From: an uncultured Anaerolineae bacterium
GTDB taxonomy: Bacteria > Chloroflexota > Anaerolineae > VGOG01
Assembly: GCA_964510205.1 (NCBI GenBank)
Contig: CAZEBW010000004.1
Coordinates: forward strand, 3,638-67,637
Length of the DNA: 64,000 bases
Direction of reading: 5' to 3'
The translations under genes and the position numbers were made by a program. The notes under the pieces were generated by a model. It was not told the DNA's origin. It saw only the letters and a program-made list of their open reading frames with translations, and did no database searches. Below are positions 8,951 through 25,704 of the stretch, in pieces. Numbering within the stretch: position 1 is the stretch's first letter; each line of letters starts with the position of its first letter.

Positions 8951-9466
8951 TCACCATCCCTCTATGAACTGCTGCCAGTCGGCGTTTTCTTTGACGTAAC
9001 GGCCAAAGAGGTAGGTACTCGTGGCAGCGGGTTCGTAAGGGCGCCGCAGCAACTGCATGTGGGCCTCTTGGAGCGTTCGTCCGCCCTTTCGATGGTTGCA
9101 GTCCGGGCACGCGCTCACCAGGTTCTCCCACTCGTGCTGTCCCCCATTGTGACGTGGGTTGACGTGATCCACGGTCAGGTTTTTGGTCTGTTTCCCGCAG
9201 TATTGGCAGGTGTAGTTGTCTCGCCGGAAGATCTCTTTTTTGGTGAGCTTGACCCGGGGGCGAGGCCGCTTGATCAGGCAGGCCAGCTTGATCACCGAAG
9301 GGCACTGGAAAGTGGTGGAAGGGGTGCGGATGACGCCCCGGCTGTTCTCCAGGACGTCGGCCTTGCCCACCACGACCAGGGTGATGGCCCTCTTGACGCT
9401 GCAAACATTCAGAGGTTCGTAATTTAGGTTAAGCACGAGAACAGGATAATCTAGCAAGCCTCTCAA
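8951..9466 (-). CDS. HNH endonuclease
   Basis: CQYCG...DHVNPRHNGG...WENLVSACPDCNHRKG HNH/zinc motif. Confidence 0.75.
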   Translation of the reverse strand: MRGLLDYPVLVLNLNYEPLNVCSVKRAITLVVVGKADVLENSRGVIRTPSTTFQCPSVIKLACLIKRPRPRVKLTKKEIFRRDNYTCQYCGKQTKNLTVDHVNPRHNGGQHEWENLVSACPDCNHRKGGRTLQEAHMQLLRRPYEPAATSTYLFGRYVKENADWQQFIEGW

Positions 9467-11268: not shown

Positions 11269-11400
11269 GCCTCCCTCCTGCAGAAGCGACGTGTGCTACT
11301 GGCCTAGATTATACTCGTGGTGGGGTAAAAGGCAAGCTCTGGTTGGGGAGAAAAGAAAGAGGCCATCCCGGTGGGTGAGGGGTGGGATGGCCCGGTCAAT

Positions 11401-11430
11401 TTGACAAGATTAGAACATGTGTGCTATAAT
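11401..11430 (+). promoter_or_regulatory. Near-consensus sigma70 promoter with extended -10 (TTGACA-18-TGcTATAAT)
   Basis: ttgacaagattagaacatgtgtgctataat read directly; ~55 nt upstream of the small ORF at 11486 with RBS agaggaggga. Confidence 0.6.
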
Positions 11431-11485
11431 CAATCTCGAAAAACCGTTCTGTTACTTACGCTTCTAATGCAGAGGAGGGAGTGAA

Positions 11486-11725
11486 ATGGGTTTGGATATT
11501 TGGTTCAAGGAAGACATTAGGAACATTCTATTGGGTGTGGAGTTGGCCAATGGGCATCTGGCCAGTCGCTACAGTGATGACGAAGTGCGGGCTTATCGTG
11601 AGGGGTTTAAGGCTGCTCTGGCAGCGACGGCGGTGAGTTTTGGGATCTATCAATTCGGACCGCGGGCGGAAGCGCATCGCATTGGGAGCCAAACTGCGCT
11701 CTCCACAATTGCAGAGCAGCCTTGA
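11486..11725 (+). CDS. Small hypothetical protein (79 aa) behind a strong promoter at the left edge of the low-GC island
   Basis: ORF with good RBS; no recognisable domain. Confidence 0.4.
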   Translation: MGLDIWFKEDIRNILLGVELANGHLASRYSDDEVRAYREGFKAALAATAVSFGIYQFGPRAEAHRIGSQTALSTIAEQP

Positions 11726-11840
11726 ACCCGGCTGATTGATTCTTAACCCCGATGCCATTCTCCACTGGGACGCCAGGCATGCTTTGTGCAAGGCGTGTCT
11801 GCTGCTGGTCTCGGTAGAGCGGTTGCGATGCCCCCACTTT

Positions 11841-13340
11841 TCATGGAAGCGGTGGCAGTAGTATCCTATTGATGGTTATGCCCCACTGGTCACTTCTTCG
11901 TTCAAGCCCTTCCATTAGTTGCTGGCATGCTGTGGCCTTGTTCGGCGGATCATGTACATCCTGTTGCCTGTATCCACATAACGCCTCATTCAGGAGCACG
12001 GCCATTTCCTGCACGATTTCTTTGTCCCAAATAGTCTTCATGTCGGCTTCGGTCAGTTTTTTCTTCTTGGTCTTCTTGTGGTTATTCTCACCAGATTCTC
12101 TAAAGAAGTGAGGTGCATGAACCGCTTTTTCCTTATTGACCTGGTAGTAAACTACTGGGGCAAGCTGCAAGACCCCATCTGCTAGTGCGACTTTCTGTTT
12201 GGGGCAACGGCATCTCAGCTCCATGGTCGGGATTACAGCTTGAATTTGGCTGTACAAGGGAAGCTGAAGAATACTTTGACCTTCTTCCAGCACCCTGATT
12301 TCGCGACTGTCTCCGATCACAGCAATCCTGTCGGGTGGGACGGTGAAGGTGAACGCCCTGTATCCAACGAGCACCAGAAGGACAAGCAAGAGTGGCAAGG
12401 CCGTACCCGCGGCAGTCAAGACAACGATGTGCAGTGAACTGCGCACGGAAAGCAGTATGCTCGCCAGCAGCATCAGTAGTACAATGACCACAAAGCCTGC
12501 CAACGCGCTGACAAAGGCGAGCACAGGGCTGGACAGTATTAGGTTGATGGCATCGCGAGCGTATGTGAGCAATGTCTCGAGTTGAATAGCAAGCGATGGT
12601 GGAGATTGCTCCGCCGCTCCGTCCTTCTCCTGCTCTGACGGCCTCATGCCTTGCGGACTGGCGTCTCCAGGTGGAAGGGATTCTTCGTCAATGTCCTCTG
12701 AGTTCATGGCTAGTCGTTCCGTCGTTTGCTCAGGCATACTCTCTTCACCCTCCTCTTGTTTTTGCTTCGCCTCTTGGCCTGACGGCTCCGTTTGTACGGG
12801 ACCAGCTCTTCCACGTCGAAGCGGTCCTCCGCCGGTATCTCCTGAATCCATGGCTACTTGTTGGTCTCGCAGGATCTTCCGGTATCGTGACTCGACTGTG
12901 CGCCTTAGGCGGCGGTCCATGTCCTGCAGCAGTTCCAGGCTGCGTGAACAGGCTTGACTTGCCTTGAGCCATTTGCCTTGGGCCTCGCACACCGTGGCCA
13001 ATCCAAAGAGGGCTACTGCTTGACTATGTTTGTCACTCAGAAAGAAGCGAGTGCTCTCTTGATACTTGTTGGCTGCCTCATCCAAGTGTTCCTGAGCGTG
13101 AAAGATAGCTGCGAGGTGAATAAGGGCTACCCCTTGAGCATATGAGTCATCCAACATGTCCAATTCGAGAGATCCTCTTGCTGATCTAATGCTTTGCTCA
13201 GCTATCGATTGGGCTGCTTTGTACCGGCCAGCTCGTCGCAGTTTGTCGGCCTCCTTGTTGAGCACGGTACCGCGATTAGTTCGTTCTCTTAGTTGGCGTA
13301 TGATCTGGTTGGCTTGTCGGTGGTAAGGATCGGATGTCAT
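11841..13340 (-). CDS. TPR-like / acidic linker / transmembrane / SPFH-like domain protein
   Basis: Likely start MTSDPYHRQ (rc ATG at 13338-13340). TPR-like helices, an E/D/Q-rich linker, two hydrophobic helices, then IAVIGDSREIRVLEEGQSILQLPLYSQIQAVIPTMELR...VVYYQVN resembling the start of an SPFH/band-7 domain. Confidence 0.5.
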   Translation of the reverse strand: MTSDPYHRQANQIIRQLRERTNRGTVLNKEADKLRRAGRYKAAQSIAEQSIRSARGSLELDMLDDSYAQGVALIHLAAIFHAQEHLDEAANKYQESTRFFLSDKHSQAVALFGLATVCEAQGKWLKASQACSRSLELLQDMDRRLRRTVESRYRKILRDQQVAMDSGDTGGGPLRRGRAGPVQTEPSGQEAKQKQEEGEESMPEQTTERLAMNSEDIDEESLPPGDASPQGMRPSEQEKDGAAEQSPPSLAIQLETLLTYARDAINLILSSPVLAFVSALAGFVVIVLLMLLASILLSVRSSLHIVVLTAAGTALPLLLVLLVLVGYRAFTFTVPPDRIAVIGDSREIRVLEEGQSILQLPLYSQIQAVIPTMELRCRCPKQKVALADGVLQLAPVVYYQVNKEKAVHAPHFFRESGENNHKKTKKKKLTEADMKTIWDKEIVQEMAVLLNEALCGYRQQDVHDPPNKATACQQLMEGLERRSDQWGITINRILLPPLP

Positions 13341-13419
13341 TGAAGTCCCCCCATAGAAGGAAAGCCCACCGGGATGCAGGAGAGTTGGGCCGGATAAACT
13401 AAGGTGTTCTGCGATATCG

Positions 13420-14727
13420 CTATGGGCTGCCAGGCGGCAATGCAATCGCTGATCTTATGGATTGCAGAGTGGCCATCACGTCGGAAGGCAGAAGGATCTT
13501 GGTCGCTGGATCGGAGGCCATTTTCTCCAGAGCTTCAATGAAACGCAAGGCTATGAATTGTGGAATCGGGATGTTCTTAGTCTCCATCTGACGGAAGCCT
13601 TCGGTGATGGCTATGATCATTCTAGTTTGAGCTTGTGCTCTGGCAACCTCAATCAGGTTATATACTTCAGCCTGTGCCTCGCCTTCAGTGATGAGGACTT
13701 GCTTGCGACTCTCCGCCATGCGCGCTTCCCAGTCTACTTGCCATTTCTTTTGCATTCCTTCCCTAATTTCCGGAGGCACCTCAATATTCAGCATCTGAAA
13801 GCTTATGATAGTGCCTCCCCAGCCTTCGGCTATCTTTCGCAGGGAATCTCGGACACGCTGCTTGATGTCGCTTTGAGGGAACGTGTTGGGATCCAGTGGG
13901 TCAAAGATATCATCCAAGTAACGTTTGCCAATCTCGTCGCGAAGCAGATTCTTGGCTACTTCGATAGTGGCGATTTCCCAGTCATAGCTATCGTAGGTAG
14001 CTTTGAGGACCGCCTCTCTAGAGAATGGATAGGGCTTCTCTGGGTTCCACACCTTGGCTGGATCCTGCGCGATGCGGAATAGAACGCTATAGTGGATGGT
14101 CACCGGTATGCCATCTTTGGTTGAGGCATTATCTAGCGTTCCTCTCCTGAACCGTTTCCGTGTGACGATGACCTTCCTGATACTTTCAAAAGGCTTGGTG
14201 CGCACTGCACCGGGCCCCTCAATGCGAGTGAATTTCCCCATCCGCTCGAAGACAACGGCTTGCTCGTTGCGTATTACGATCAAATTGGCTACCTTGAAGC
14301 CGGCGAGTGCGCCTTTGGACTTCACCTCGTCCACTTGGCCATCTTCAACGATGATGTAGCTTCCCAGGAATAGCTCTCCGGTGACAAAAGAGAGTAAATA
14401 CCGAAAGCAGTCCCACTGATTGCCGCCCCGGCTGACCAGTATGAGTTGCGAGGCCAGAAACAGGAGACTGCCTGTTAAGAATAGATAGACAGCCAGCCCC
14501 AATACTGCCCCCGTCAGGCCTCTCGTGACGAAGGAGAAGGTCAGAAACACCCCACTTGCAGTGAAGAATATCGCCAGCGCCACGCCCTTGCTCTGGCCCA
14601 TCCTGACAAGACACCCAAGGGAGACCACAGCGAGCCATACTAGGCCCCATTTGGGCTCGTGAACTACAGAGACTAAAATCAGTAGTGGAAGCAGGGCTAC
14701 GGACAACACAAGCAAGATCTTCTTCAT
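13420..14727 (-). CDS. SPFH/band-7 (stomatin/HflKC-like) domain membrane protein
   Basis: N-terminal 4-5 TM helices, then NEQAVVFERMGKFTRIEGPGAVRTKPFESIRKVIVTR...TKDGIPVTIHYSVLFRI (SPFH core) and a coiled-coil tail; start MKKILLVL. Confidence 0.7.
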   Translation of the reverse strand: MKKILLVLSVALLPLLILVSVVHEPKWGLVWLAVVSLGCLVRMGQSKGVALAIFFTASGVFLTFSFVTRGLTGAVLGLAVYLFLTGSLLFLASQLILVSRGGNQWDCFRYLLSFVTGELFLGSYIIVEDGQVDEVKSKGALAGFKVANLIVIRNEQAVVFERMGKFTRIEGPGAVRTKPFESIRKVIVTRKRFRRGTLDNASTKDGIPVTIHYSVLFRIAQDPAKVWNPEKPYPFSREAVLKATYDSYDWEIATIEVAKNLLRDEIGKRYLDDIFDPLDPNTFPQSDIKQRVRDSLRKIAEGWGGTIISFQMLNIEVPPEIREGMQKKWQVDWEARMAESRKQVLITEGEAQAEVYNLIEVARAQAQTRMIIAITEGFRQMETKNIPIPQFIALRFIEALEKMASDPATKILLPSDVMATLQSIRSAIALPPGSP

Positions 14728-14903
14728 AGCACAAGCTCTCCTTGTTTCTGTCAGCACTCTTAAGGTACGTGAGACTGCCGTCCAGTGCGTTCAACACGAG
14801 CTTATCTGACGGCGCCACAGGTATCACCCAGTTTCCATAGATCGAGGCAAAACCAAAAGGCCGCGGCTCGATATCGAAAACGTTTTGCAATGAGGGTGCT
14901 CAC

Positions 14904-16418
14904 TCAGCTCTGGGCGATCAAAATGGGGGAAGCCCAAGTCAAGTCATCCTTATTACGCATTGCCAGCTCTCGCCGGGCATCCAGCAGTGCCAGTTCAGGG
15001 CTGCCGTGCTGGAGCATAGAACGATAGAACGCCAGTGCCATTTCCTTGGCGCTCACTGCCGGCACTGACCACCTGTAGCCCAAAACAGACGGCACCCCTG
15101 ATTGGATAATTCCATCAGCGATACCCAGGTAGTCATCGTCCAGCAAATCAACCGGGCTGCCGGTACGAGTGCCCTCGCAGCACGTCAGGTGAAACAAACG
15201 GGTGTCAGAATCTTCCAACAGCCATCTCAGCTCATTTCCGGTCATTGGCTTTATATTCCCTGACCGGTTGCTGTCTTCCCAGAAGAACAATCTGCTCTGT
15301 TCCGGAGACCCCTCGTGAAAGACTCCGTGACCAACATAATGCACGATGTGATGCTTACACCCACGGAGCATTTCTTGCACTGCACTGTATGTAGCTGCTT
15401 CGGTTCTGACATGAGTCAAATCCAACCAGTTCAGTGGCGACAGCAAATCCACCAACTCTTCTCCGATTTTGTCAATCAGATCAATGCGTGGCTCAGTGTT
15501 GGACACGAGCAGTAGAACACGCAGGTTCTCGCCTGAACTGGCGAGACGTCGTATGAGTTCAGCAGAGATGGGTTCACGCCTCGTCACTACGCCTCGAATT
15601 TGGCGGACCATTGGATGGAGCAGTGTAAGGTAATCACCAGCCTCATCGGAAAAGATGAACTCCAGTGGCAATCCTGCCAGATCTCGGGTGGATTCAAACA
15701 CGAGGTGCAAGTATTGGTTCATTTGCGTCCTACCGAGTGCTCGGTGATACCCGTTGAGTACCGCAGAGTGCTGTTCGAACAGCAGGCGGTATAGCTCCCG
15801 TCCCACGTCTTTGATCAGAAAGCGGCGGTCTGCTGTGCTCATCATGCGTTCGCTTCCCCAGCGTGCAAAACGTGGAGCGTCGAGGCTTAGTGGATTGACA
15901 GAGGTGTATGTGAAGCGGATGTTGCCACGGCCCCGCACAAGAAGTCGCTGCCCTGGCTCTAGCGAGATTGTAATTTCGCACTCTTGGCTCGGCTCAAAGA
16001 CCGGCAATTGCCATTTCAATGACCTACTGATCACGCTATCCATCACTTTAACCACATCTTCTATCATGGTCTTTGGGAGGTACTCGGCTACAAGTCGCCG
16101 TCCAGTTGCATCAGGTTCCAGGGCGCGCCTCATCGTGTCAGGGGTACCATAGCCGGTGATAATGACAATCGGGAGCCCAGGGAATCGTCGTTTAAGCTCA
16201 GCAGCTAGATCAAGGCCTTCTAGGTTGCCTTCATCTGTCTCGTCCAAGCGCATGTCAAGTAGGGCTGCGTCGAAATGCTCTCGGTCAGACAAATCCAGGG
16301 CTCGCGCAACACTGGCAGCCGTTTTGGTTGCGTAGCCCTCGTCAATCAAGAGTTGTGAAAGGGTCACTCGCCAGTCAAACAAATCATCTACGATAAGCAC
16401 CTGGATTTGTTTAGTCAT
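14904..16418 (-). CDS. Response-regulator receiver fused to CHAT (caspase-like) protease domain
   Basis: REC: ILIVDDL...FDAALLDMRL...ITGYG...YLPKT. CHAT: IVHYVGHGVFH (catalytic His) and LFHLTCCEGT (catalytic Cys), C-terminus ALLDARRELAMRN...WASPILIAQS. Confidence 0.75.
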   Translation of the reverse strand: MTKQIQVLIVDDLFDWRVTLSQLLIDEGYATKTAASVARALDLSDREHFDAALLDMRLDETDEGNLEGLDLAAELKRRFPGLPIVIITGYGTPDTMRRALEPDATGRRLVAEYLPKTMIEDVVKVMDSVISRSLKWQLPVFEPSQECEITISLEPGQRLLVRGRGNIRFTYTSVNPLSLDAPRFARWGSERMMSTADRRFLIKDVGRELYRLLFEQHSAVLNGYHRALGRTQMNQYLHLVFESTRDLAGLPLEFIFSDEAGDYLTLLHPMVRQIRGVVTRREPISAELIRRLASSGENLRVLLLVSNTEPRIDLIDKIGEELVDLLSPLNWLDLTHVRTEAATYSAVQEMLRGCKHHIVHYVGHGVFHEGSPEQSRLFFWEDSNRSGNIKPMTGNELRWLLEDSDTRLFHLTCCEGTRTGSPVDLLDDDYLGIADGIIQSGVPSVLGYRWSVPAVSAKEMALAFYRSMLQHGSPELALLDARRELAMRNKDDLTWASPILIAQS

Positions 16419-17205
16419 GGCTGCTATCCGTGGGAGTTTCTATGGCTTTGATCACAGGGAGTGTGATCGCTATCGTCGTGCCGTGGCCAATCTCAGTATG
16501 TTTTACACTAATCTCTCCACCAAACCTGGCAAGTATCAAATGCGCTAACCAGAGACCCAGGCCCTTGTTGGTCCCGGTTGACGGAATCGGACCCTGAAAA
16601 AGATCGGCAAGAATGAGTTGCGGTATCCCTGTTCCGTTATCTGCAATCTCTACTCGCACTGTGTTGTCCGCGTCCACGTACTGGGTATGGATGTCAATAT
16701 GTCCGGGTTTTTTGCTTGTTGCTTGGATCGAGTTTTCGAGCACCGCCCGGAAAACCTCCGCGAGCAAGTGGCTATCAGCACGCACGGGAGGGACATCCTC
16801 TGGAAAATCAAAACTCACCCGTACTGTCTTGGAAGTGTGGCTAGCAGAAAGTTCTTCCCAGACCTCATACAGCAGTGAGTTTACGTCTAAGGGCATAGGC
16901 GGCTCACTCGGCTCTCTGAGTACTTCGACGGCGGCACTTAATTCGCTCAAACTGCTAATGGTCTTTTCTATGGCTGTGACCAGGTCGAGGGCGGCTCTAT
17001 CGTTGCTATTGATGTATTCCTTAAGACGACCGACTCGAACTCCCAGCAACCCAGTCAAGTTGGAGAGCTGGTGCAGTAATGCAGCAGAAGCCATCCCCAG
17101 TGCAATGAGGCTGGCCTCCTCCCCGTGGCTACGGTTAGGATGTGCACTTTCTTGCGGTAGGGGTGGATTTGGTCTCTGACTTTCCCGGTCATTTGGTGGA
17201 CTCAT
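16411..17205 (-). CDS. Cytoplasmic sensor histidine kinase (DHp + HATPase_c, no TM or sensor domain)
   Basis: H-box AALLHQLSNLTGLL; N, G1 (ADNGTGIP) and G2 (GLGLWLAHLI) boxes. Confidence 0.75.
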   Translation of the reverse strand: MSPPNDRESQRPNPPLPQESAHPNRSHGEEASLIALGMASAALLHQLSNLTGLLGVRVGRLKEYINSNDRAALDLVTAIEKTISSLSELSAAVEVLREPSEPPMPLDVNSLLYEVWEELSASHTSKTVRVSFDFPEDVPPVRADSHLLAEVFRAVLENSIQATSKKPGHIDIHTQYVDADNTVRVEIADNGTGIPQLILADLFQGPIPSTGTNKGLGLWLAHLILARFGGEISVKHTEIGHGTTIAITLPVIKAIETPTDSSHD

Positions 17206-17241
17206 TTGTCGGATTCTCCCAAGCGCGGCGCGTCCTTCAGT

Positions 17242-18768
17242 TCACTCCTGATGAATCAAGATAGGCGACAACCAGGTTGGATCGTTTCTGTCCATAGCGG
17301 CCAGCTCGCGCCTTGCGCTCCAGAGGGCGAACTCCGGCCCCCCTTGCTCCAATAAGGACTGGTAGAAAGCCAACGCCAGCCGACGGGCTCCATCATCTGA
17401 CACAGGCCAGCGGAAGCCCAGCACCGAGGGTGCGCCGGCCTGCGCGACAGCGTCGGCCAGCCCAAGGAAATCGTCATCCAGCAAAGCAGCCTGAGCGCCG
17501 CTGGCTGTGCCATAGCAACTGCTCATGTACACCAGACGTGCTTCCGAGCGCCTGAGTAGCATCTTTAGTTCGGTTGCTTTCATCGGCATGACGCCACCTT
17601 GCTTATTCTCCTGGGCCCAGAAGTATAGGCTGCTATCTTCAGGGGACTCGGTCCTGTACGAGCCATGTCCTGCGTAATGTACAATGTCGTAACTGGGCTT
17701 CCCCAACTCTGATCTTACGCGCTCATACGTGGCGCGCTCCGTGGGGATGAGTTTAACACTGACAGGGATGCAGTCCTGGCTCTTTAAGTACTCGTACAGT
17801 GCCTGCGCCTCGGCATCTACGCCGTCTATTGGAGGCTGTGTGTTAGAGGCGATAATCAGAATTCGCAATTCCTGAGTCAGTGCCAGCAGCGAAGGGGAAA
17901 TCAGGCTGCGTTTCGGGGTAGCATTGTATAGAAAACGGGCGAGGGGGTGTTGAAGTACCAGGTACTCTGGAGGATCATCCGAGCGCATAAATTCCAATGG
18001 TAGTCTGAGAAATTCCCTGGGCGTCTCAAAAAGCATTGAAAACGACTGGCTCTTGGCGCGCGCTTCCACATAGGCTTTTTCGGCTTCAGGGTGCTCAGTA
18101 AATATGTCACGCCACAGACTGTGGCCGATCTCCCCAACCTGGAAACGCAAATTGCTCACGTCTCTTCTGGCGAGTTCTGTCCGCCTTGCATAGCGTTCGA
18201 GTGCCACACGCAACACTTTCCACGAGCGCAAGGAACAGACGTGGCGACCGCGCGCCCTGATCACCAGAGGCTGTCCGGCTGTGAGTGATAGAGATAGCTG
18301 GGTAGCATCACCTGTCTTCTCAAACCTCGGCTTGGTTGCCTCCTGGCGTGCTTTCGCGATAGTCTCCAGAACTTGTTCAGCCACATCCGGGGTTTTTTCG
18401 ATGAAGTCAACTACTCCGAGATATCGAATCGCGCGTACAATTTGCTTGGTTCTCGGGTAGCGTGTGAGCAGGATGACGCGAACCCGCGGATTGAGGGCGC
18501 GGAATGCCATCGCCAGGCTCAATCCGCTTTCGTCCTCTTCATCATCTCCGTGCAGGCGCACGTCAATGAGAGCAAAGTCGAACGGTTCTTGCGTGACAGC
18601 AACCAGGGCTTGTTCCTCGTTGGCCGCTGACCGGACGGTGTATCCTTCATCGGAAAGTCGCCCTGCTAACGTGGTACAGAAATCGGCATGGTCATCTACT
18701 ATCAGAATCTTGCACATTGCTACCCTCTTCATCAACTGTCTGATGGGACGCTCCGGGTCATCCAGCAT
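17242..18768 (-). CDS. Response-regulator receiver fused to CHAT protease domain (second copy)
   Basis: REC: KILIVDDHADF...FDFALIDVRL...LTRYP...IEKT. CHAT His IVHYAGHGSY and Cys LVYMSSCYGT; start may be the internal M (MCKILIV). Confidence 0.75.
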   Translation of the reverse strand: MLDDPERPIRQLMKRVAMCKILIVDDHADFCTTLAGRLSDEGYTVRSAANEEQALVAVTQEPFDFALIDVRLHGDDEEDESGLSLAMAFRALNPRVRVILLTRYPRTKQIVRAIRYLGVVDFIEKTPDVAEQVLETIAKARQEATKPRFEKTGDATQLSLSLTAGQPLVIRARGRHVCSLRSWKVLRVALERYARRTELARRDVSNLRFQVGEIGHSLWRDIFTEHPEAEKAYVEARAKSQSFSMLFETPREFLRLPLEFMRSDDPPEYLVLQHPLARFLYNATPKRSLISPSLLALTQELRILIIASNTQPPIDGVDAEAQALYEYLKSQDCIPVSVKLIPTERATYERVRSELGKPSYDIVHYAGHGSYRTESPEDSSLYFWAQENKQGGVMPMKATELKMLLRRSEARLVYMSSCYGTASGAQAALLDDDFLGLADAVAQAGAPSVLGFRWPVSDDGARRLALAFYQSLLEQGGPEFALWSARRELAAMDRNDPTWLSPILIHQE

Positions 18769-19639
18769 TCCCCCAATTTGCCTGTATGTAACTCGTTGTC
18801 GCCTTTACGTCCAGGCTGCGAGTCGAATTGCCAATACGCACCCAGAACTTGTGAACATCGCCCGTCGCCAGGAACACCGGCTTTGGGCTTTTTTCAATCG
18901 CAACGATGCAGACGTGTTTACCATCTATGGGTTCGAAGCGTGTGCGAATGTATGGCATATATTCTAGACCCACATAGGTCTTGACAATATCCGTCAATGC
19001 CAATTGAAACCCATCGGTATTTGGCTTGCGCAGAGTTTGTAAGTCTTTTTCAATACCTAGCACCGTGCCATCGTCAGCGACGCCAATGAGTAGGGTCCCA
19101 CCCTTGCTGTTCAACATTCCTGTGATTGCCACGGCGATCGTTTCCTGCAGGCTCTTGTTAGTTGTGTTTTTCTTGAAATCCCAGCGGATACTGGACTTGA
19201 ATTCCACGTGGTCATTTTCACCTTGGGCAATCAAATTGAGTACCGAGCGTTCAAATGCGCGGTTCACGTACTCCGGCAGTTGGTCTACTTCAGATTTTTC
19301 CAGGAAGCCAAACGCTGGTGATACTCCCTCGCGATCAGGTTGAAGGACCTCCCTCACCATCCTGACGTTTGCATAGCCGGTCAAGATAATGATGGCCACA
19401 TGGGGGTCCTTCTCTCTGATCTCGCGCATAAGCAAGATGCCATCTTGGTTGTCCTCGTCGGCCTCGTCCAAGCGCACGTCCAGAACTGCGACGTGAAAAC
19501 GCTCGGCGTCCAACATTTGCAGAGCCTCAACTCTGCTGGATGCCGAGCGTACTTCATAGCCTTCGTCTGACAAAAGGCCCGACAATGTTGCGCACACGTC
19601 GGGCAGGTCATCTACTACGAGAACGCGACCTTTGTACAT
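18758..19639 (-). CDS. Response-regulator receiver fused to an AlbA_2 (Schlafen-like) domain
   Basis: Likely start MYKGRVLVVDD. REC with VAVLDVRL; C-terminal ENDHVEFKSSIRWDFKKN...TLLIGVADDGTVLGIEKD matches the AlbA_2/Schlafen N-domain signature. Confidence 0.65.
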   Translation of the reverse strand: MYKGRVLVVDDLPDVCATLSGLLSDEGYEVRSASSRVEALQMLDAERFHVAVLDVRLDEADEDNQDGILLMREIREKDPHVAIIILTGYANVRMVREVLQPDREGVSPAFGFLEKSEVDQLPEYVNRAFERSVLNLIAQGENDHVEFKSSIRWDFKKNTTNKSLQETIAVAITGMLNSKGGTLLIGVADDGTVLGIEKDLQTLRKPNTDGFQLALTDIVKTYVGLEYMPYIRTRFEPIDGKHVCIVAIEKSPKPVFLATGDVHKFWVRIGNSTRSLDVKATTSYIQANWGNAG

Positions 19640-19665
19640 GGCACTCCTGCCGATTGCATCTTGTC

Positions 19666-20067
19666 TTATCGTGCCAACACTTCCTGTACTATCTTGACCA
19701 ACTCTTCGGTCTGGGTTTTCGGGATATAGTTCGCTACAAGTCTCCGGCCCTGCGTATCTGGCTCCATTGCCCGTCTCATGGTATCCGGCGTGCCGTAGCC
19801 TGTGATCATTACGACTTCGGTAGTGGGCCAATGTTGTTTGATCTCATCCGCCAGGTCCAGCCCCTCGGTGTTACTCTCGTCCGTCTCGTCCAGGCGCATG
19901 TCCAGTACTGCCAGATCAAAATGGCTGGTTTTGAGCAACTCCAATGCCGCAGGCGAAGACTCGGCAACCTGGACATCGTATCCCGCGTCCTCCAACAAGC
20001 CACCGAGCGTCGTGCGCCAATCTAGCAGGTCATCTACCACCAGAATCTTCTGCCGTTTGTTTGTCAT
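19666..20067 (-). CDS. Single-domain CheY-like response regulator (paralog of the REC of the 14904 REC-CHAT)
   Basis: ILVVDDL...FDLAVLDMRLDETDESNTEGLDLADEIK...ITGYGTPDTMRRAMEPD...YIPKT, almost identical to the REC of 14904-16418. Confidence 0.8.
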   Translation of the reverse strand: MTNKRQKILVVDDLLDWRTTLGGLLEDAGYDVQVAESSPAALELLKTSHFDLAVLDMRLDETDESNTEGLDLADEIKQHWPTTEVVMITGYGTPDTMRRAMEPDTQGRRLVANYIPKTQTEELVKIVQEVLAR

Positions 20068-20459
20068 TCTCTTACTCCTTCGTGCTTACCATGGCGATTA
20101 CGCGGCACCTGTGGAAACAGAATGATCTCCCTGACCTGCTCGAAGAGATCCTCGCTTCCGAAAGACTTGGCGAAGTAGCGCATGGCTCCCAACCGGTAGG
20201 CCGCAAGCGCCTCTTGGGTCGTGGGTTGTACTGTTGTTACGACCACCCGCTTATCAGAGTATTTCTCAGCGATGACTGCAAGCACGTCCAGGCGGCGGGA
20301 GCTTGCGATGACCAGGTCGAACTGATCCGCTTCGAGTTCAGCGAGTGCTGCCTTGGTGTCAGGCGCAACGACGATTTCAAACTTGTTGAGATCGCTCTTG
20401 GCGAACTCAATCCAGCGAGGTTCGTCGTCAATGATCAGAATGCGAGTTTTCATGATCAC
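20064..20459 (-). CDS. Atypical receiver-like protein (pseudo-receiver; phospho-acceptor Asp apparently replaced)
   Basis: ILIIDDEP present, but the expected D in FDLVI-A-SSRRL is Ala. Confidence 0.55.
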   Translation of the reverse strand: MIMKTRILIIDDEPRWIEFAKSDLNKFEIVVAPDTKAALAELEADQFDLVIASSRRLDVLAVIAEKYSDKRVVVTTVQPTTQEALAAYRLGAMRYFAKSFGSEDLFEQVREIILFPQVPRNRHGKHEGVRE

Positions 20460-23400
20460 ACCTCCTTTCCCGTCCCCGGCGCTGGGATCTGAACCAGCAT
20501 TGTTGTTCCAGTGGGATCGGTCTCTTCTATTATAGCATCACCGCCAATACTTTGCAACATCAGTCGGCTGAGCCAGAGACCCAGACCTGCCCCTCCGCCT
20601 GGCTCCTTGGATGGGACTGGTTTGACGAAGAGACGTTGCTGGACTTGCAGTGGGATGCCCGGTCCTGTATCCTGAACCCGCACACAGATATTACTGTCGG
20701 TCAGACGACTGGTAACTGCTAACTGGCCACCCGCCTTCATTGCTCGGTAGGCATTGTCAACCAAGTTGTAGAAGACCTCAGCGATCTGACCGATCGGGGC
20801 CCGAATCTGCGGCAGCGATTGATCCAGGTCTAGGGTATGTTCGATCGTTGATCGAATGGGATCCGTTCGCCACTGTTCTCTCACTTTACCCACCACGTCA
20901 CTCAGCACTGCGTTAATGTCCACATCCTGATCCTCGACCTCTCGCAGCGGTTCTTGAATGCGCGCGATGATATCCGACGTATAGCGGGCGTTACGTTCGA
21001 TGATGTCAAGGATCTCTGCAATCGTATCATTCGACATATCAACGCGCTTCCGCAGGCGCGTCACGTTGGGAACGATGATGTTGAAGGTATTATTGACACG
21101 ATGTTGTAAAGCTGCGATGGCCGTGCCCAGTGTGGCCAAGCGCTTGGTCGCGATGACTTCACTGCGTGCCTCCTCATATAACCGGGCATTCTCAAGGGCA
21201 ATGGCTGCCTGGTTGGCCATAGAGGAGATGACCTGCAAGTCCTGTTCATCGTAGGCCTGCTCTCTTTCCCAGTCGTAGATAGCGATCACGCCCAGAACCC
21301 TATTCTCCAGAACCATCGGGACACCTATCCAAGATTTGGCGACACGCCCGATGAACTCTTGATGTCCGGGCTGTCCATACCACGCTTTAGATTCCACTTG
21401 GGTGCGATGCAGGATTGGCTTCTTGGTAAGGATGACTTCTTCGGTCTTACCCCGCTTCTCCATATCAGCCTTGCGGGGATCGTAATGCACCTGCTCACCG
21501 TGCTCCGTTGCCAGACCGAAGCGGATCATCCCTGTTTCCTCGTCATACAGCGCGATGTACATGTCCTGTGCGCCGGTCAACTCCCTGGCCTGCTCGTAGA
21601 TTAGCTCCAGAATCTCATCTTGCTTCAGACGAATACCGGAGGTTAGTGCCTGTCCTACCTCATTCAGTGCCGCCAACGCCTGAACGCGCCGTGCGAGCTG
21701 CTGGTTGATCTCGTAGTAAAGCGTTGCATTATCCAACGCGATTGCCGCTTGGTTGGCCACAGAGGAGATGACCTGCAAGTCCTGTTCATCGTAGGCCTGC
21801 TCTCTTTCCCAGTCATAAATGGCGATCATACCCAGTACCTTCTCACCTGTGACCATGGGAACGCCCAAGTAAGAAGGCTGAACACGCCCGATGAACTCTT
21901 GATGTCCGGGCTGTCCATACCACGCTTTAGATTCCACTTGGGTGCGATGCAGGATTGGCTTCTTGGTAAGGATGACTTCTTCGGTCTTACCCCGCTTCTC
22001 CATATCAGCCTTGCGGGGATCGTAATGCACCTGCTCACCGTGCTCCGTTGCCAGACCGAAGCGGATCATCCCTGTTTCCTCGTCATACAGCGCGATGTAC
22101 ATGTCCTGTGCGCCGGTCAACTCCCTGGCCTGCTCGTAGATTAGCTCCAGAATCTCATCTTGCTTCAGACGAATACCGGAGGTTAGTGTCTGTCCCACCT
22201 CGTTCACTGCCTGTATAGCTTTATACAAGCGTGCGCTTTTAATAGCAACCGCTGCTGCCCCAGCTAGGGCCTCAACCAGACGCATGTGATCGTCTGTAAA
22301 GGCTCCGATTTGGGTACTCTCCAGATTGAGCGTTCCAATCACTCTGTCACGGTGTATCAACGGTGTTGTGAGTTCGGATTGTACTTCCTCAAACCACTCC
22401 TTGTAGTACGGATCGCTTTTGATATCGTTGCAAAGATATGTCTTTCTACTCAAGGCAACGTGTCCGTTGATGCTCGTCTCGTCTAGGGGTAGTCTCGTGA
22501 GGGTTCGCGTCGGCGTCTCATCCCTCTTGTTTCTCGCCCCAAATCGCAGTTCACGTGTCCGCTCGTCCAGCAACCAAATACTCGTATACTTGGCTGGCGT
22601 CAGCCTGGCCGCTTGCTCTGCGATTTGCTCCAGCAGATCCTCTAGGGAAGCAGTGCCAATGAGCGCGTATAGGTTCTGAAGAGCTCTGATATCATCAATT
22701 CGCTCTTGTAGGCTAGTCTGAGCCTCTTCGTACACACGGGCGTTATAGATAGCTGTCGCCGCTTGATTAGCGAACAGCTCGATAGCCCCCCGTTGCTCAG
22801 GAGTGAAGGGTTGTCGGCTCCGGTAATTGACGAACATAGCGCCCACGGTTTCGCCTGCTGCTTCGAGGGGGACGGCGGCTGACGATAGGATTCCCTCGCG
22901 CACTACAAAGCGCTTTTCCGGGCGCTCAGGGCGCTCTACGGTGAATGGGCCGGTGAGCAGGGTATCCGTCTGAGTATCGGGAGAGTAGAGGGGCTCTCCA
23001 CCCTCGACCACTTTCACAACGACATCATCCTTGAATATTTCGTCCTTGACAACTGTGGGGTCTCGGCGCTCTCCTTCCAAGATAGGTGGCATGATGTAAC
23101 GGTCATCCGCCTCAACGTACTGGTACACATCCACGAGATCGGCACCCAATACACTCCTGGCACTTCGCGCCACCTGACGCAATACCTCTCTCAACCCCTG
23201 TGCCGAAAGCTCAGCCGAGAGTATTCGTCCCCCAATCTGGTGCAGCCTCTGCAAGACTGCAGCCCGGCTGGTTGCCTGCTCAAGAAGTTGAGCATTGTGT
23301 ACAGCCACGGCGGACTGGCTGGCCACCGCCTCTAACAGCATCTGATCGTGCTCGTCAAAGCCGCTCAGCCCGTCCATATCAGCAGAGATCACCCCAATAA

Positions 23401-24193
23401 CCTCGTCTTGCAAGATTATGGGCGCCAGCACCATTGAGCGCTCGACGATGTCTGACGACAAACCGGGGACAAACTGAGGGTGCTTGACCGCATCCGGGAC
23501 GAGTTCTGATTGCTTGGTTTGGGCTACCCACCCGGCCAACCCGACCCCTTGGGCGAACTGCTGTCGTGCGATGCCTGCTGACGAGGCAGCTTCCAACGCT
23601 AGGTCACCGCTCTTATCCACTAGAAAAACGCTGATGTGCTTGCAATCCAGCACTCTTTCTGCGGCTTGCATAATGCGTGCGAAAAGATCGGCACGGCGCA
23701 ATTCGGAACTGATCAAGAGGCTCACTGCGTTCAGGGTCGCCAGATCCTGAATTCGACGCTGCGTGGCAGCCACTTGAGCGGAAGAACTCTCAATCAGCGC
23801 CTTCTCGAAATCAGTGAAATCCCTTGCCTCACGGGTATAAACGTCAAGCACACCAACGATTTTCCTTTTTACTCGTAGTGGTACCACCATAGCCGACTTC
23901 AGTCCCATAGCGGTGGTTTCTGGTTTGTACTTCCAGCGAGCATCGGTGTCAACGTCTGTCACGACGATTGCCTGTTCAGTCGCAAAAACGTCAGACGCGA
24001 CACTGGGCTCATCCAGGCGCAGAAACGCATCGCGAACGTATTCCTCTGACAACTCTGTCGCTGCAGCGATCCGGAGGGTTTCCCCCGTTTCATCGGCAAG
24101 CCAGATACAGGCCGGCAGTCCCAGAGTCTGGCTTATGGTCTCCACCACGGGTTGAAAGAACTGCTTTTTATCAAGTTCTTGAGAGGGGATCAT
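20456..24193 (-). CDS. Large cytoplasmic multi-GAF-domain sensor histidine kinase (1245 aa)
   Basis: At least 5-6 GAF-like modules, coiled coil, H-box ALQHRVNN, HATPase_c (DTGPGIP...GLGLWLSR); no TM helices. Confidence 0.8.
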   Translation of the reverse strand: MIPSQELDKKQFFQPVVETISQTLGLPACIWLADETGETLRIAAATELSEEYVRDAFLRLDEPSVASDVFATEQAIVVTDVDTDARWKYKPETTAMGLKSAMVVPLRVKRKIVGVLDVYTREARDFTDFEKALIESSSAQVAATQRRIQDLATLNAVSLLISSELRRADLFARIMQAAERVLDCKHISVFLVDKSGDLALEAASSAGIARQQFAQGVGLAGWVAQTKQSELVPDAVKHPQFVPGLSSDIVERSMVLAPIILQDEVIGVISADMDGLSGFDEHDQMLLEAVASQSAVAVHNAQLLEQATSRAAVLQRLHQIGGRILSAELSAQGLREVLRQVARSARSVLGADLVDVYQYVEADDRYIMPPILEGERRDPTVVKDEIFKDDVVVKVVEGGEPLYSPDTQTDTLLTGPFTVERPERPEKRFVVREGILSSAAVPLEAAGETVGAMFVNYRSRQPFTPEQRGAIELFANQAATAIYNARVYEEAQTSLQERIDDIRALQNLYALIGTASLEDLLEQIAEQAARLTPAKYTSIWLLDERTRELRFGARNKRDETPTRTLTRLPLDETSINGHVALSRKTYLCNDIKSDPYYKEWFEEVQSELTTPLIHRDRVIGTLNLESTQIGAFTDDHMRLVEALAGAAAVAIKSARLYKAIQAVNEVGQTLTSGIRLKQDEILELIYEQARELTGAQDMYIALYDEETGMIRFGLATEHGEQVHYDPRKADMEKRGKTEEVILTKKPILHRTQVESKAWYGQPGHQEFIGRVQPSYLGVPMVTGEKVLGMIAIYDWEREQAYDEQDLQVISSVANQAAIALDNATLYYEINQQLARRVQALAALNEVGQALTSGIRLKQDEILELIYEQARELTGAQDMYIALYDEETGMIRFGLATEHGEQVHYDPRKADMEKRGKTEEVILTKKPILHRTQVESKAWYGQPGHQEFIGRVAKSWIGVPMVLENRVLGVIAIYDWEREQAYDEQDLQVISSMANQAAIALENARLYEEARSEVIATKRLATLGTAIAALQHRVNNTFNIIVPNVTRLRKRVDMSNDTIAEILDIIERNARYTSDIIARIQEPLREVEDQDVDINAVLSDVVGKVREQWRTDPIRSTIEHTLDLDQSLPQIRAPIGQIAEVFYNLVDNAYRAMKAGGQLAVTSRLTDSNICVRVQDTGPGIPLQVQQRLFVKPVPSKEPGGGAGLGLWLSRLMLQSIGGDAIIEETDPTGTTMLVQIPAPGTGKEV
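21209..22290. repeat. 540-bp tandem duplication (2 copies) of one GAF module inside the histidine kinase gene, with a ~320-nt 100% identical core
   Basis: 21343-21662 equals 21883-22202 at nucleotide level (the + strand ORFs 21359-21604 and 21749-22144 translate identically); flanks ~75-85% identical. Confidence 0.75.
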
Positions 24194-24228
24194 GGGTCAC
24201 TCTCCTTGTCATCTGTAAATGGGCAGAT

Positions 24229-25569
24229 TCAATTATGAGGTTGGTGTCTCCAGACTTCCAATGACTCCCTATATCCCGCTTCCGAAAATGCTAACCCCTT
24301 CTCCCTCAGCATCATAGCGGTGAGAAGGTGAGGTAATCCTTTCTTCTTTTCCAGGAAGACGATTTGTGGGCCGGAAAGCGTACGCCTACCATTCTTCTTC
24401 AGGAATTGCATGAGCTGGCGACGTCCGCGCTCAACGGTCTTTAAGAAACGCTGTGCCTCGGTTGAGAAATAGGATTCCAGTTTCTCCTCGTCCTCCGGCG
24501 CCGCTCGCGAAGCGTTGCGCACTGTTTGGGAAATGCAATCTATCAGTGTGGGTAGAAACCCCCTGGTTTCGATGCCCAGAACAATCTGCCGCGTTACGAC
24601 ACCTCGAATCAATAGCTTAATGAGACGCTCTCGCCCATTCTTACCTGGAGGTGGAGCGCCATCTGCGACTAGGAAATACAGCGCCTTTAGATAATCTGCC
24701 ATCACATGTTCGCTGGCAGTGATCAACGATTCTGGCAGGTCAGGTGCGCGAACGAGACTATGTATGGTGTCTGTGATCGGTTGGTAACTACTTATCTCAA
24801 ACACTGATTGAGCATCTTGCAGGATCATTGCCACGCGCTCAGTGCCAATCACCGTTTCGAAGAAAGGCTCCGTCATCGGTTGGAGCCTTTGGGTCTTAGT
24901 GTCTATCTCGGTGCTGACAAAGAGTGAATTGGCGAATTCAACGAACCGACCGCACTGGCAAGGCGGCCGACAATCGGGGCCGCAGCCAAAGACCGCGCCT
25001 CGATCAAAGAACATCTCAGTATTGGGCCCGCATTTACGATAGCGAACTACCCCTTCAATGCCATTTCCTTGTTTCCAGAGGTTGTCCTTGACTCCCAGAC
25101 CTATGATCTGCTCTTCAGGCATCCCGATACTCCGCCAAGCTTGATGAGCCTCTACATCCTCGTCAAACGCATGCTTTGAAATCTTACCCCCGGCGAAATA
25201 AGTGACCCATATGTTGTCTGGCTTGATTCTCAGGTTTGAGGTCATGAACTCCCACATTTGCTGGATAACAGTTGCCTTGCTGAGAGCATTAAAGGAAAAA
25301 GCGGCGGGCATTTCAAACAAGCTTAGGTGCACATTGTCGGTTCCAACGGTGTCAATGTCGAAATATCTGAAGCACTTTTGCACCAGTGCATACTTATGCC
25401 CGGCACGCTTGCCCATCTGATCAAGAGCCTTTTCAAATTGCGGTAATCCAGCACTCATTACGAACGACATAGGAATAGAGGGATGCAACAGCGAGGCACT
25501 AGGCAGAACGGAGAATCCTTTGCCCTGGTAATAATCGAGGAACGTTTGGCTAATGGCTGGGGATCGCAT
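24229..25569 (-). CDS. Alanyl-tRNA synthetase catalytic-fragment paralog (AlaRS N-terminal ~441-aa-like, divergent)
   Basis: SQTFLDYYQGKGFSVLPSASLL...QFEK...VQKCFRYFDIDTVG...HLSLFEMPAAFSF...GKNGRERLIKLLIRG is collinear with the AlaRS N-terminus (FLDFF..GH..VPS..LLFTNAGM..QKCIR..D.VG..HHTFFEML.NFSFGDYFK..GNEGRGYVLRRIIRR). No editing or C-Ala domains; several canonical motif residues are changed. Confidence 0.6.
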   Translation of the reverse strand: MRSPAISQTFLDYYQGKGFSVLPSASLLHPSIPMSFVMSAGLPQFEKALDQMGKRAGHKYALVQKCFRYFDIDTVGTDNVHLSLFEMPAAFSFNALSKATVIQQMWEFMTSNLRIKPDNIWVTYFAGGKISKHAFDEDVEAHQAWRSIGMPEEQIIGLGVKDNLWKQGNGIEGVVRYRKCGPNTEMFFDRGAVFGCGPDCRPPCQCGRFVEFANSLFVSTEIDTKTQRLQPMTEPFFETVIGTERVAMILQDAQSVFEISSYQPITDTIHSLVRAPDLPESLITASEHVMADYLKALYFLVADGAPPPGKNGRERLIKLLIRGVVTRQIVLGIETRGFLPTLIDCISQTVRNASRAAPEDEEKLESYFSTEAQRFLKTVERGRRQLMQFLKKNGRRTLSGPQIVFLEKKKGLPHLLTAMMLREKGLAFSEAGYRESLEVWRHQPHN

Positions 25570-25620
25570 TTTCTAGCTCCAAATCACGCGATACACCGAA
25601 CGTTATTGTAGATGCATGAA

Positions 25621-25649
25621 TATTATATCAAACCTGTCCTTAAATGTCA
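25621..25649 (-). promoter_or_regulatory. Perfect sigma70 consensus promoter (TTGACA-17-TATAAT on the minus strand) driving the AlaRS-like / HK / REC / CHAT operon
   Basis: Reverse complement reads ttgacatttaaggacaggtttgatataat; ~45-nt leader with ggag RBS before the ATG at 25569. Confidence 0.55.
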
Positions 25650-25704
25650 AGGCATCCAAAATACTGGATAGACATACACCGTATCGTTCAAGGAGTTGGG
25701 GTAA

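Follow-up and report, generated by a model that had tools for sequence, protein, structure and literature searches.

Described SPFH systems and the locus

SPFH proteins are universal membrane organisers, and their choice of clients is poorly understood beyond HflK/C-FtsH and stomatin-NfeD. The subject of this analysis is a pair of SPFH genes at positions 11841-14727 of a 64,000-nucleotide (nt) stretch from an uncultured Anaerolineae bacterium of the Chloroflexota (contig CAZEBW010000004.1, assembly GCA_964510205.1); the whole stretch is called the window. The pair lies downstream of an operon of receiver (REC), histidine kinase and caspase-like CHAT proteins. The first gene encodes protein 1, a cage-type SPFH protein, and the second protein 2, in which a TPR domain and an acidic linker precede a membrane hairpin and an SPFH core. 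Together they form a conserved, rare and uncharacterised two-gene module of metagenomes and metagenome-assembled genomes (MAGs), those with a name belonging to the Anaerolineae. The chances are about even that this module is an autonomous two-subunit SPFH scaffold with a TPR adaptor on the cytoplasmic face of the membrane, found facultatively beside a phosphorelay block, and not a dedicated CHAT regulator.

Classical SPFH proteins are anchored by one transmembrane (TM) segment or by a hairpin. A single TM segment and a coiled coil are found in HflK as well as in HflC, both of which face the periplasm. The stomatin PH1511 of Pyrococcus is processed by the Ser-Lys protease PH1510, which is encoded in the same operon. 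The order of an SPFH gene followed by the gene of a membrane partner is also that of QmcA-YbbJ of E. coli (PDB 8z5g).

The closest published description is that of SPFH11a/b, an invariably adjacent pair encoded in one operon, with a b member that has no coiled coil (PMC2636767). The pair was reported from four of eight Chloroflexi genomes; its function is not known, and gene duplication was presumed to be its origin (Hinderhofer et al. 2009, PMC2636767). Its members come from Chloroflexus and Roseiflexus (e.g. Roseiflexus YP_001276552/YP_001276551), and those of SPFH11b reach E = 3e-14 to 4e-26 against a generic SPFH hidden Markov model (HMM). Band7-like domains have also been described from the vWA-MoxR ternary conflict systems of multicellular prokaryotes, where they stand in the effector position and form superstructures; caspase-like and TPR domains are likewise part of these systems (Kaur et al. 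2020, PMC7159879). Unlike in those systems, no vWA or MoxR genes are present at the window locus.

The likeness of the window pair to SPFH11a/b is one of organisation, as compared by description and not by sequence. The genes are adjacent in both cases, protein 1 has a coiled-coil helix and protein 2 has none, and protein 2 is nearest to its own neighbour. Unlike the window pair, SPFH11a/b are described without mention of a TPR domain, an acidic linker or a four-TM anchor (PMC2636767). Protein 2, unlike SPFH11b, reaches only E = 3e-3 against the SPFH (Band_7) model, and the relatives found here are from Anaerolineae MAGs and not from Chloroflexus or Roseiflexus. A motif scan of species genomes, described below, yielded only Anaerolineae loci, which counts weakly against a close relationship with SPFH11. 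SPFH pairs as such are therefore already known; what is new is a pair of SPFH paralogues with a dedicated TPR adaptor.

With HflK/HflC (SPFH3a/b), which form a cage around FtsH, the window pair shares the arrangement of tandem paralogous SPFH genes in one operon. The window pair differs from HflK/C in the four TM helices of protein 1, in the TPR arm and missing coiled coil of protein 2, and in the predicted location of both SPFH domains, which is cytoplasmic like that of stomatin and flotillin. Against the NCBIfam model of HflK (TIGR01933) the score was 26.5 bits, the cutoff being 159.4, and a scan of the neighbouring genes revealed no FtsH. The order of an SPFH gene and a membrane partner gene also recalls stomatin/NfeD (PH1511/PH1510, QmcA-YbbJ); for the window pair, no NfeD or OB-fold match was obtained in Pfam or NCBIfam.

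Architecture of the two proteins

Translation of protein 1 starts at the ATG at 14727, with an AAGGAGA ribosome-binding site about 9 nt 5' of it. The Pfam family Band_7 (PF01145) matches the protein with E = 8.9e-18 and 65.4 bits (gathering cutoff 23.6), over residues 161-353 as numbered on the 445-residue open reading frame (ORF). In an AlphaFold model built from an alignment of 14 homologues (mean predicted local distance difference test, pLDDT, 74), TM helices at residues 2-23, 27-47, 49-67 and 71-98 are followed by the SPFH alpha/beta core, a single 65-residue helix and additional C-terminal helices. As modelled, the long helix is the counterpart of the CC1 wall helix of SPFH cages. About 280-300 columns of the model were aligned by Foldseek to full-length chains of HflK/C, stomatin, erlin and prohibitin (best E = 1.6e-11), and with the HflK/C chains 7vhq, 9cz2 and 7wi3 the alignment spans about 290-300 columns, wall helix included. 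By analogy with these proteins, protein 1 would assemble into a ring or cage via the wall helix. Its topology is tentatively N-in/C-in with a cytoplasmic SPFH domain, to judge from hydropathy, charge distribution and the positive-inside rule. A word-indexed search found 15 relatives of protein 1, with identities from 84% to 26%. The most conserved stretch of the family alignment (A2) is the C-terminal motif FIALRFIEALEKMASDPATKILLP, and it was with this motif as scan pattern that all related loci, numbered with an L below, were retrieved.

The N-terminus of protein 2 is matched by TPR_12 (E = 6e-10, 39.6 bits; cutoff 30.1), and family profile and Foldseek searches returned consensus-TPR structures and the TPR of kinesin light chain. 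The TPR domain is the module that defines the protein 2 family. In the linker that follows, residues 175-247 have a pLDDT below 50; its length varies among orthologues, with a large gap in L002 and the distant ones. Hydropathy peaks at residues 263-336, AlphaFold places helices at 250-270, 272-300 and 303-329, and the orthologues have two hydrophobic segments. Such a hairpin would place the TPR and SPFH domains on one side of the membrane, presumably the cytoplasmic one by hydropathy and charge distribution. An N-terminal membrane anchor is thus present in both proteins, as four helices in protein 1 and as a hairpin directly before the SPFH core in protein 2. The alpha/beta domain of protein 2 (331-494) is modelled with a pLDDT of about 85-93, and the chain stops there, leaving no coiled coil.

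The sequence-only reading had proposed that the SPFH identity of both proteins be checked against Band_7. Protein 1 is clearly positive, as given above. For protein 2 alone the outcome is negative: no Band_7 match was obtained for the full-length protein at E ≤ 0.01, and its C-terminal 244 residues remained below the threshold (17.9 bits, cutoff 23.6; E = 0.0034). Its family is nevertheless positive, as Band_7 is matched by 13 of 16 members (best E = 2.7e-9) and the L002 orthologue passes the cutoff with 26.9 bits. The family profile further matches stomatin PDB chains at 1e-10, and the best Foldseek matches of the protein 2 model, with E = 9e-7 to 1e-4, are stomatin, HflK/C, prohibitin, erlin, flotillin and QmcA, the last of which is also among the fold matches of protein 1. 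Orthologue scores, family profile and predicted fold together identify the C-terminal domain of protein 2 as SPFH, the fold assignments of both proteins resting on predicted and not on solved structures.

In the NCBI record, protein 2 comprises only the C-terminal 298 residues (11841-12737), with a start within the acidic linker that hides the TPR domain. The gene calls of JGI (an orthologue, 496 residues) and Logan (the identical protein, 499 residues) are full length, and in orthologues with 82%, 35% and about 21-22% identity the conservation starts at Met1; these two observations support the full-length frame. The possibility of a mis-fused ORF was rejected on the same grounds, the N-terminus being conserved from Met1 in four orthologues. 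The public annotation is hereby corrected from 298 to 499 residues, and the TPR-SPFH fusion becomes visible.

The feature pointed out in the sequence-only reading, tandem SPFH membrane proteins of which the second is fused to a TPR domain and an acidic linker, is real, and architecture and fold agree with its description. This holds for the SPFH assignment of protein 1 as well as for the order of TPR N-terminus, acidic linker, TM hairpin and SPFH-like C-terminus in protein 2, which is borne out by TPR_12, hydropathy, profile and fold. Three small corrections are needed. Protein 1, which had been called a classical multi-TM SPFH protein, is indeed multi-TM with its four helices and is not classical, the usual anchor being one TM segment or a hairpin; the truncation of protein 2 at NCBI has to be taken into account; and the distance to the operon, put at about 150 nt, is in fact 176 nt.

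Conservation and origin of the pair

The two genes are adjacent and on the same strand wherever the contig suffices (the window with L001 and L018; L002; L007/L008; L009; L011/L042/L043; L013; L014; L040). Between the genes of orthologous pairs lie 18-139 nt, the mechanical ORFs overlapping in L007; in the 79-nt spacer of the window, a weak hairpin at 13380-13365 does not exceed what shuffled sequence yields. Across the paired lineages the identity of the SPFH protein falls from 84% to about 28%, and the whole architecture of protein 2 is kept down to about 20% identity.

Out of 1.84 billion cluster representatives, an exhaustive HMMER search with the C-terminal half of protein 2 found 15 at E ≤ 1e-3. 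Ten of these 15 were looked up; the sole name was 'hypothetical protein', and all came from metagenomes or MAGs. A word-indexed search with protein 2 or with the 15-sequence C-terminal alignment, limited to the best 8000 candidates, returned only protein 2 itself and one 84%-identical fragment, low-complexity and TM words having probably swamped the candidates. The motif scan of 185,579 species genomes gave four loci, all in Anaerolineae MAGs.

When the SPFH core of protein 2 was compared by hhalign with the protein 1 family A2, a probability of 98.3% and E = 1.7e-14 were obtained, as against 7.9e-8 and 3.4e-6 for two other SPFH subfamilies. Since the core is closest to the family of its own neighbour, these sequence comparisons fit an origin of protein 2 by tandem duplication of the neighbour's core with loss of the coiled coil.

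In five loci (L007, L008, L009, L011 and L013) the pair is followed by a third gene for a protein of about 230-280 residues, in which an N-terminal TM segment and a Thr/Pro-rich linker are joined to a domain of about 170 residues with conserved Cys residues; Pfam gave no match for it. The third gene was sought beside the pair and is not present in the window, L001, L002 and L014.

TPR adaptors with exchangeable C-termini

The TPR domain of protein 2 is also found joined to a peptidase. In L015/L016, where the protein 1 relatives are more distant (33% identity), the downstream gene encodes a soluble TPR + Peptidase_S24 protein, and a distant protein 1 relative on another contig (P0013) is followed by a gene for a Peptidase_S24 protein. 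Residues 9-158 of protein 2 are 31% identical (E = 2e-17) to the N-terminal 150 residues of the L015 partner (321 residues). The C-terminus of this partner matches Peptidase_S24 with E = 1e-22 and has kept a GDSM serine motif and an LKR lysine motif, which we take to contain the catalytic residues by analogy with LexA.

A third layout was seen in a metagenome scan with HMM-labelled ORFs, in which a gene called o334 and two full-length SPFH paralogues, SPFHa and SPFHb, are accompanied by a TPR-related/S24 or S24-like gene. A TPR + S24-like third gene follows SPFHa-SPFHb in L019, L026, L027/L028 and L030. In L019, L026 and L030, GDSM is changed to EDGW and the lysine is lost, and the domain is probably inactive there, a retained pseudo-peptidase by its sequence. 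In L020, L022 and L037 an S24-like domain of the EDGW type is fused to the C-terminus of the SPFH protein. The partner in L015/16, L027/28 and the P0013 contig carries an S24 Ser-Lys peptidase that looks active. Judged by these sequences, the recurring unit is one or more SPFH proteins with a cognate TPR adaptor whose C-terminal module can be swapped. The o334 protein has about 310-510 residues and no significant Pfam domain; it adjoins SPFHa-SPFHb pairs and is encoded directly upstream of them in six of seven loci and directly downstream in L022.

The partners with an active-looking peptidase resemble PH1510 in the type of their Ser-Lys dyad. They differ from the stomatin/NfeD systems in that the peptidase is an S24 (LexA-like) domain joined to TPR and not a ClpP-like S49 domain, and the window partner has no protease domain. 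Under a protease-substrate logic as in stomatin/NfeD, S24 in the sister modules and CHAT in the window would cut the SPFH protein or the protein 2 linker, and the scaffold would then open or disassemble. This is quite unlikely, even with the precedent of PH1511/PH1510, the active-looking S24 partners, and the two CHAT proteases directly upstream of a window module that lacks a protease of its own. Against it stand the many modules with an inactivated S24-like domain or no protease, which indicate that proteolysis is not essential to the family; the linkage to CHAT is, moreover, facultative and the cleavage site hypothetical.

Association with the AlaRS-like/GAF-kinase/REC-CHAT block

All genes of the SPFH pair and of the block upstream of it are on the minus strand, and the REC-CHAT gene nearest to the pair ends at 14904, so that the pair was correctly placed directly downstream of the CHAT operon. 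From its head, the block consists of an AlaRS-like gene, a six-GAF histidine kinase, two stand-alone receivers, a REC-SLFN_AlbA_2 protein and two REC-CHAT proteins with a short histidine-kinase-like protein between them. No terminator-like or promoter-like site was found in the 176-nt gap by a scan whose counts did not exceed those in shuffled sequence and which is thus uninformative on co-transcription. The operon resembles Detocs (kinase, stand-alone REC and REC-effector) in the outline considered here (bioRxiv 10.1101/2023.01.24.525353). The families of PADLOC, Detocs included, gave nothing beyond generic receiver-domain similarity. In PADLOC-DB v2, protein 1 matches 0 families and protein 2 only generic TPR (E about 0.006-0.009), and the literature searched held no direct precedent linking SPFH with CHAT, anti-phage defence or S24.

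Pair and operon are alike in composition, with GC 0.52-0.56 and GC content at third codon positions (GC3) of 0.53-0.66, as against GC 0.62-0.64 and GC3 above 0.8 in the flanking glycosyltransferase genes. They are contained, together with the AlaRS-like gene, in a low-GC stretch of about 15 kb (about 11300-26300; GC 0.50-0.56, GC3 0.42-0.66) between flanks with GC of about 0.60-0.64; an HNH endonuclease gene is located at 8951-9466. On its composition, the stretch may have been acquired horizontally.

The sequence-only reading had proposed a check of whether the SPFH pair co-occurs with REC-CHAT operons in other genomes, and had seen in the pair a hint of membrane-localised control of the CHAT system. 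It should be borne in mind that all block-bearing loci came from SPFH-based searches and form a biased sample. The exact pair type (SPFH + TPR-TM-SPFH) is found beside REC-CHAT only in the window's own clade, with L001 and L018, which share 87-88% nucleotide identity with the window and hence are not independent; this speaks against a link to CHAT. Elsewhere the pair follows a radical-SAM gene in L002 and the gene of a giant LTD protein in L007, and precedes PfkB in L014 and SIR2/NACHT genes in L040. Flanks of 3-10 kb contained no CHAT or GAF-kinase gene, either around the pair in L002, L007, L011/L042, L014 and L040 or around the related modules in L005, L015/16, L023, L034, L035 and L037; none was seen in the available flanks of L010, L017, L030 and L036 either.

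A different SPFH module accompanies a homologous block in another clade. In L027/L028, the genes o334-SPFHa-SPFHb-TPR/S24 are directly followed by AlaRS-like, a five-GAF kinase, REC, REC, REC-SLFN and REC-CHAT; L026 and L022 have the same layout as far as the contig end. The L028 proteins are 80% and 82% (REC), 81% (REC-SLFN), 67% (REC-CHAT) and 63% (AlaRS-like) identical to those of the window, the value for REC-SLFN applying from residue 67 of the window protein on. The SPFH proteins of L022/L026/L027/L028 and of the window are 28-32% identical, as compared with 60-82% for the block proteins. In L022, L026 and L028 the SPFH module lies on the opposite side of the block from that of the window, and the gene after REC-CHAT in L028 encodes an unrelated membrane protein and not SPFH. 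Remnants of an L028-type module (o334, SPFHa, SPFHb, S24) were looked for upstream of the window AlaRS-like gene, and none were found. A third arrangement is that of L009, an Anaerolineales MAG, where the pair and the third gene are followed by S1-REC-HK, REC-GAFx6 and AlaRS-like genes 0.4-7.6 kb away.

The AlaRS-like protein (about 446-472 residues, catalytic region) of L022, L026 and L028 is 60-63% identical to that of the window, and that of L009 42%. Its gene adjoins a histidine kinase in the window, L022, L026 and L028; in L009 it adjoins a REC-GAFx6 protein in which no kinase domain was detected. As the AlaRS-like proteins of L022, L026 and L028 are 75-81% identical among each other, these loci are one clade. 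The association of SPFH genes with the block therefore recurs about three times independently, in three arrangements, yet is facultative. Co-occurrence is thus seen in the window clade, in L022/L026/L028 with a different SPFH module and partly in L009, and is absent from at least ten other lineages with usable flanks. Membrane-localised control of CHAT is favoured by the recurring adjacency and the common low GC/GC3, and disfavoured by the restriction of the exact pair beside REC-CHAT to the window clade. The link of the pair to the CHAT operon is suggestive, not established, and is offered as a lead only.

One may ask whether the pair is a dedicated, co-transcribed accessory of the phosphorelay-CHAT system, which would anchor, sequester or gate REC-CHAT, or sense membrane perturbation for the GAF kinase, with the TPR domain binding an operon component. 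We regard this as rather unlikely. Shared strand, the 176-nt gap in which no terminator-like site was seen and the common low-GC island agree with it, as do the other module type flanking the homologous block in L022, L026 and L027/L028 and the pair near REC-GAFx6 and AlaRS-like in L009. The sister modules have a protease of their own (S24), like SPFH-NfeD operons, and the third gene after the SPFH-S24 pair of the P0013 contig encodes AAA_16-CHAT. On the opposite side stand the pairs and related modules that have no CHAT or GAF-kinase neighbours, the gene after REC-CHAT in L028, the small number of independent associations and the bias of the sample, as well as the missing PADLOC match for the pair and the missing SPFH-CHAT link in the literature searched.

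PfkB is found directly after SPFH modules of every layout in five lineages (L005, L010, L014, L015 and L034), and this neighbourhood is probably the ancestral chromosomal home of the SPFH module. The adjacency looks like inherited synteny with an unrelated gene, and synteny with no obvious function thus persists in the group. By the same argument, the window pair might be a plain housekeeping microdomain or quality-control pair, similar to HflK/C or flotillin, whose adjacency to the operon reflects synteny or island insertion only; the widely varying module neighbours are in line with this. Such an explanation is nevertheless very improbable, given that the pair lies within the operon's island of atypical composition, that the same AlaRS-like/multi-GAF block recurs beside different module types and in different orientations, and that the family is rare and patchy.

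Further neighbours of SPFH modules were noted. In L015, PfkB is followed by Indigoidine_A, and the two are probably a pseudouridine kinase/glycosidase pair. In L040 (3152-13129), the pair is followed by genes for a 680-residue protein, LysM-PA14, 8xMP, SIR2_2 (804 residues), NACHT-TPR (989 residues) and radical-SAM/SPASM, a neighbourhood that is defence-island-like; 8xMP is also found near the pair in L011/L043. On the P0013 contig (genes 382-10280), SPFH and Peptidase_S24 are followed by HEPN_Swt1, an acetyltransferase, AAA_16-CHAT (805 residues) and AAA_16-TPR (914 residues), this AAA_16-CHAT being a different kind of CHAT protein.

A possible mode of action

The autonomy of the module is argued from its many unrelated gene contexts, PfkB in five lineages among them. 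By analogy with the assemblies of HflK/C, stomatin, flotillin, prohibitin, erlin and QmcA, protein 1 would be the ring- or cage-forming subunit on the cytoplasmic face of the membrane. Protein 2 can be pictured as a duplicated core minus the coiled coil and minus three TM helices' worth of anchor complexity, with a TM hairpin kept. As it has no coiled coil, it would not be a wall subunit; its SPFH core and hairpin may attach it to the ring or next to it, more likely at the membrane-proximal SPFH layer. The TPR arm, on its flexible acidic tether of about 85 residues, could then capture a soluble client at the membrane. Candidate clients are the adjacent phosphorelay components or else a substrate that falls to the S24 peptidase where sister modules have one. 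A protease-substrate relationship of the stomatin/NfeD kind is plausible as a sub-hypothesis, though not as a general rule, in view of the many modules whose S24-like domain is inactivated or missing. The TPR domain is the constant element of the partner, and the C-terminus is either hairpin and SPFH core or an S24 peptidase, active or inactivated. In the window genome, the SPFH module may serve as the membrane platform of the AlaRS-like/multi-GAF kinase/REC/REC-SLFN/REC-CHAT block. The family suggests that client choice can be modular, a cage-type SPFH protein being combined with a dedicated TPR adaptor whose C-terminus is swapped.

Several points weigh against an autonomous scaffold of this kind. 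To our knowledge, every solved SPFH heteromer assembles via the coiled coil, and protein 2, which has none, may not join the ring at all. Oligomerisation, the contact between the two proteins and the TPR ligand are all hypothetical. The cytoplasmic topology of protein 1 is tentative because the N-terminal TM part of its model is of low confidence (pLDDT 44-71). Solo SPFH genes (P0006 in L005) also carry the C-terminal motif of protein 1, so that its tail does not co-vary with a TPR partner. Finally, the recurring adjacency to GAF-kinase and CHAT genes could imply a coupling that is tighter than facultative. The conserved C-terminal tail of protein 1 had been considered as ligand of the TPR domain, which is unsupported since the solo SPFH genes have the tail too.

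A wider reading, which we consider unlikely, is that SPFH protein and TPR adaptor are the membrane arm of a phosphorelay effector system of Anaerolineae-type Chloroflexota, linking the state of the membrane to a caspase-like response and having an interchangeable protease partner. The effectors would be held or set free by the scaffold, or would cleave it at the exposed acidic linker, and its protease would be interchangeable in evolution (active S24, inactivated S24-like, or CHAT in trans). If the adjacency to the block is functional, this would be the first link of an SPFH scaffold to bacterial caspase-like effectors under two-component control.

Features of the locus and minor observations

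Table 1 Features of the window and of related loci (coordinates of other loci are preceded by the locus number)
Feature	Coordinates	Strand	Basis or remark
Protein 2, 499 residues: TPR, acidic disordered linker, TM hairpin, short SPFH core	11841-13340	-	
TPR-like helical domain, protein 2 residues 5-165	12846-13328	-	TPR_12, pLDDT ~95
E/G/P/S/Q-rich acidic disordered linker, protein 2 residues ~166-249 (~85 residues)	12594-12845	-	composition, pLDDT
Amphipathic helix and two-helix TM hairpin, protein 2 residues 250-329	12354-12593	-	hydropathy, AlphaFold
Divergent SPFH core ending at the C-terminus, protein 2 residues 330-499	11844-12353	-	profile, fold
Spacer between the protein 1 and protein 2 genes, 79 nt	13341-13419	-	
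Protein 1, SPFH/Band_7 membrane protein, 435 residues	13420-14727	-	Pfam, AlphaFold model, Foldseek
Four predicted TM helices, protein 1 residues 1-98	14434-14727	-	hydropathy, AlphaFold
SPFH alpha/beta core, protein 1 residues 149-316	13780-14283	-	Pfam, AlphaFold secondary structure
Single 65-residue helix, protein 1 residues 319-383	13579-13773	-	AlphaFold, Foldseek
Family C-terminal motif FIALRFIEALEKMASDPATKILLP, protein 1 residues 391-414	13486-13557	-	alignment A2
Spacer from REC-CHAT stop to protein 1 start, 176 nt	14728-14903	-	GC 0.517
REC-CHAT, 504 residues, directly upstream of protein 1	14904-16418	-	CHAT E = 4e-27, Response_reg E = 2e-15; 67% identity to L028 REC-CHAT
Short histidine-kinase-like protein (HATPase_c)	16411-17205	-	Pfam
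Second REC-CHAT, 508 residues	17242-18768	-	Pfam
REC-SLFN_AlbA_2, likely start Met65 of 357-residue ORF	18758-19639	-	Pfam
Two stand-alone receiver proteins	19666-20459 (19666-20067, 20064-20459)	-	Pfam
Six-GAF histidine kinase, 1245 residues	20456-24193	-	
AlaRS-like, tRNA-synt_2c catalytic part only, 446 residues, head of block	24229-25569	-	
AlaRS-like, other loci	L009 19432-20847; L022 5297-6634; L026 6282-7619; L028 5378-6781		
PfkB	L005 6008-6934; L010 2885-3811; L014 1827-2750; L015 12167-13090; L034 13241-14167		
S24-like domain, predicted inactivated	L026 4913-6079; L019 4567-5730; L030 8135-9127; L022 185-2026; L020 3-1415; L037 9578-11422		
o334	L019 797-1768; L026 878-1981; L028 390-1394; L022 3823-4788; L030 3734-5254; L035 5641-6582; L037 7126-8175		
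Third gene after the pair	L007 12420-13130; L008 3803-4531; L009 12381-13217; L011 3250-3933; L013 2345-2863		

No RNA family of Rfam was found in the window between 11200 and 15000. A 79-residue ORF (11486-11725, plus strand) is convergent to protein 2, and the same gene was called in L001 (7351-7590). Upstream of it, at 11401-11430, lies a perfect 12/12 sigma-70-like promoter with a TG extension; the end of the ORF overlaps a terminator-like hairpin (11717-11734). Rfam gave no match here.

The gene of the six-GAF kinase contains a 540-nt tandem duplication (21186-22181). Its copies show 100% identity over 300 nt (21342-21641 and 21882-22181) and 79% over the 149 nt next to these. Either a GAF-containing segment was duplicated in frame very recently, or the repeat is an artefact of assembly.

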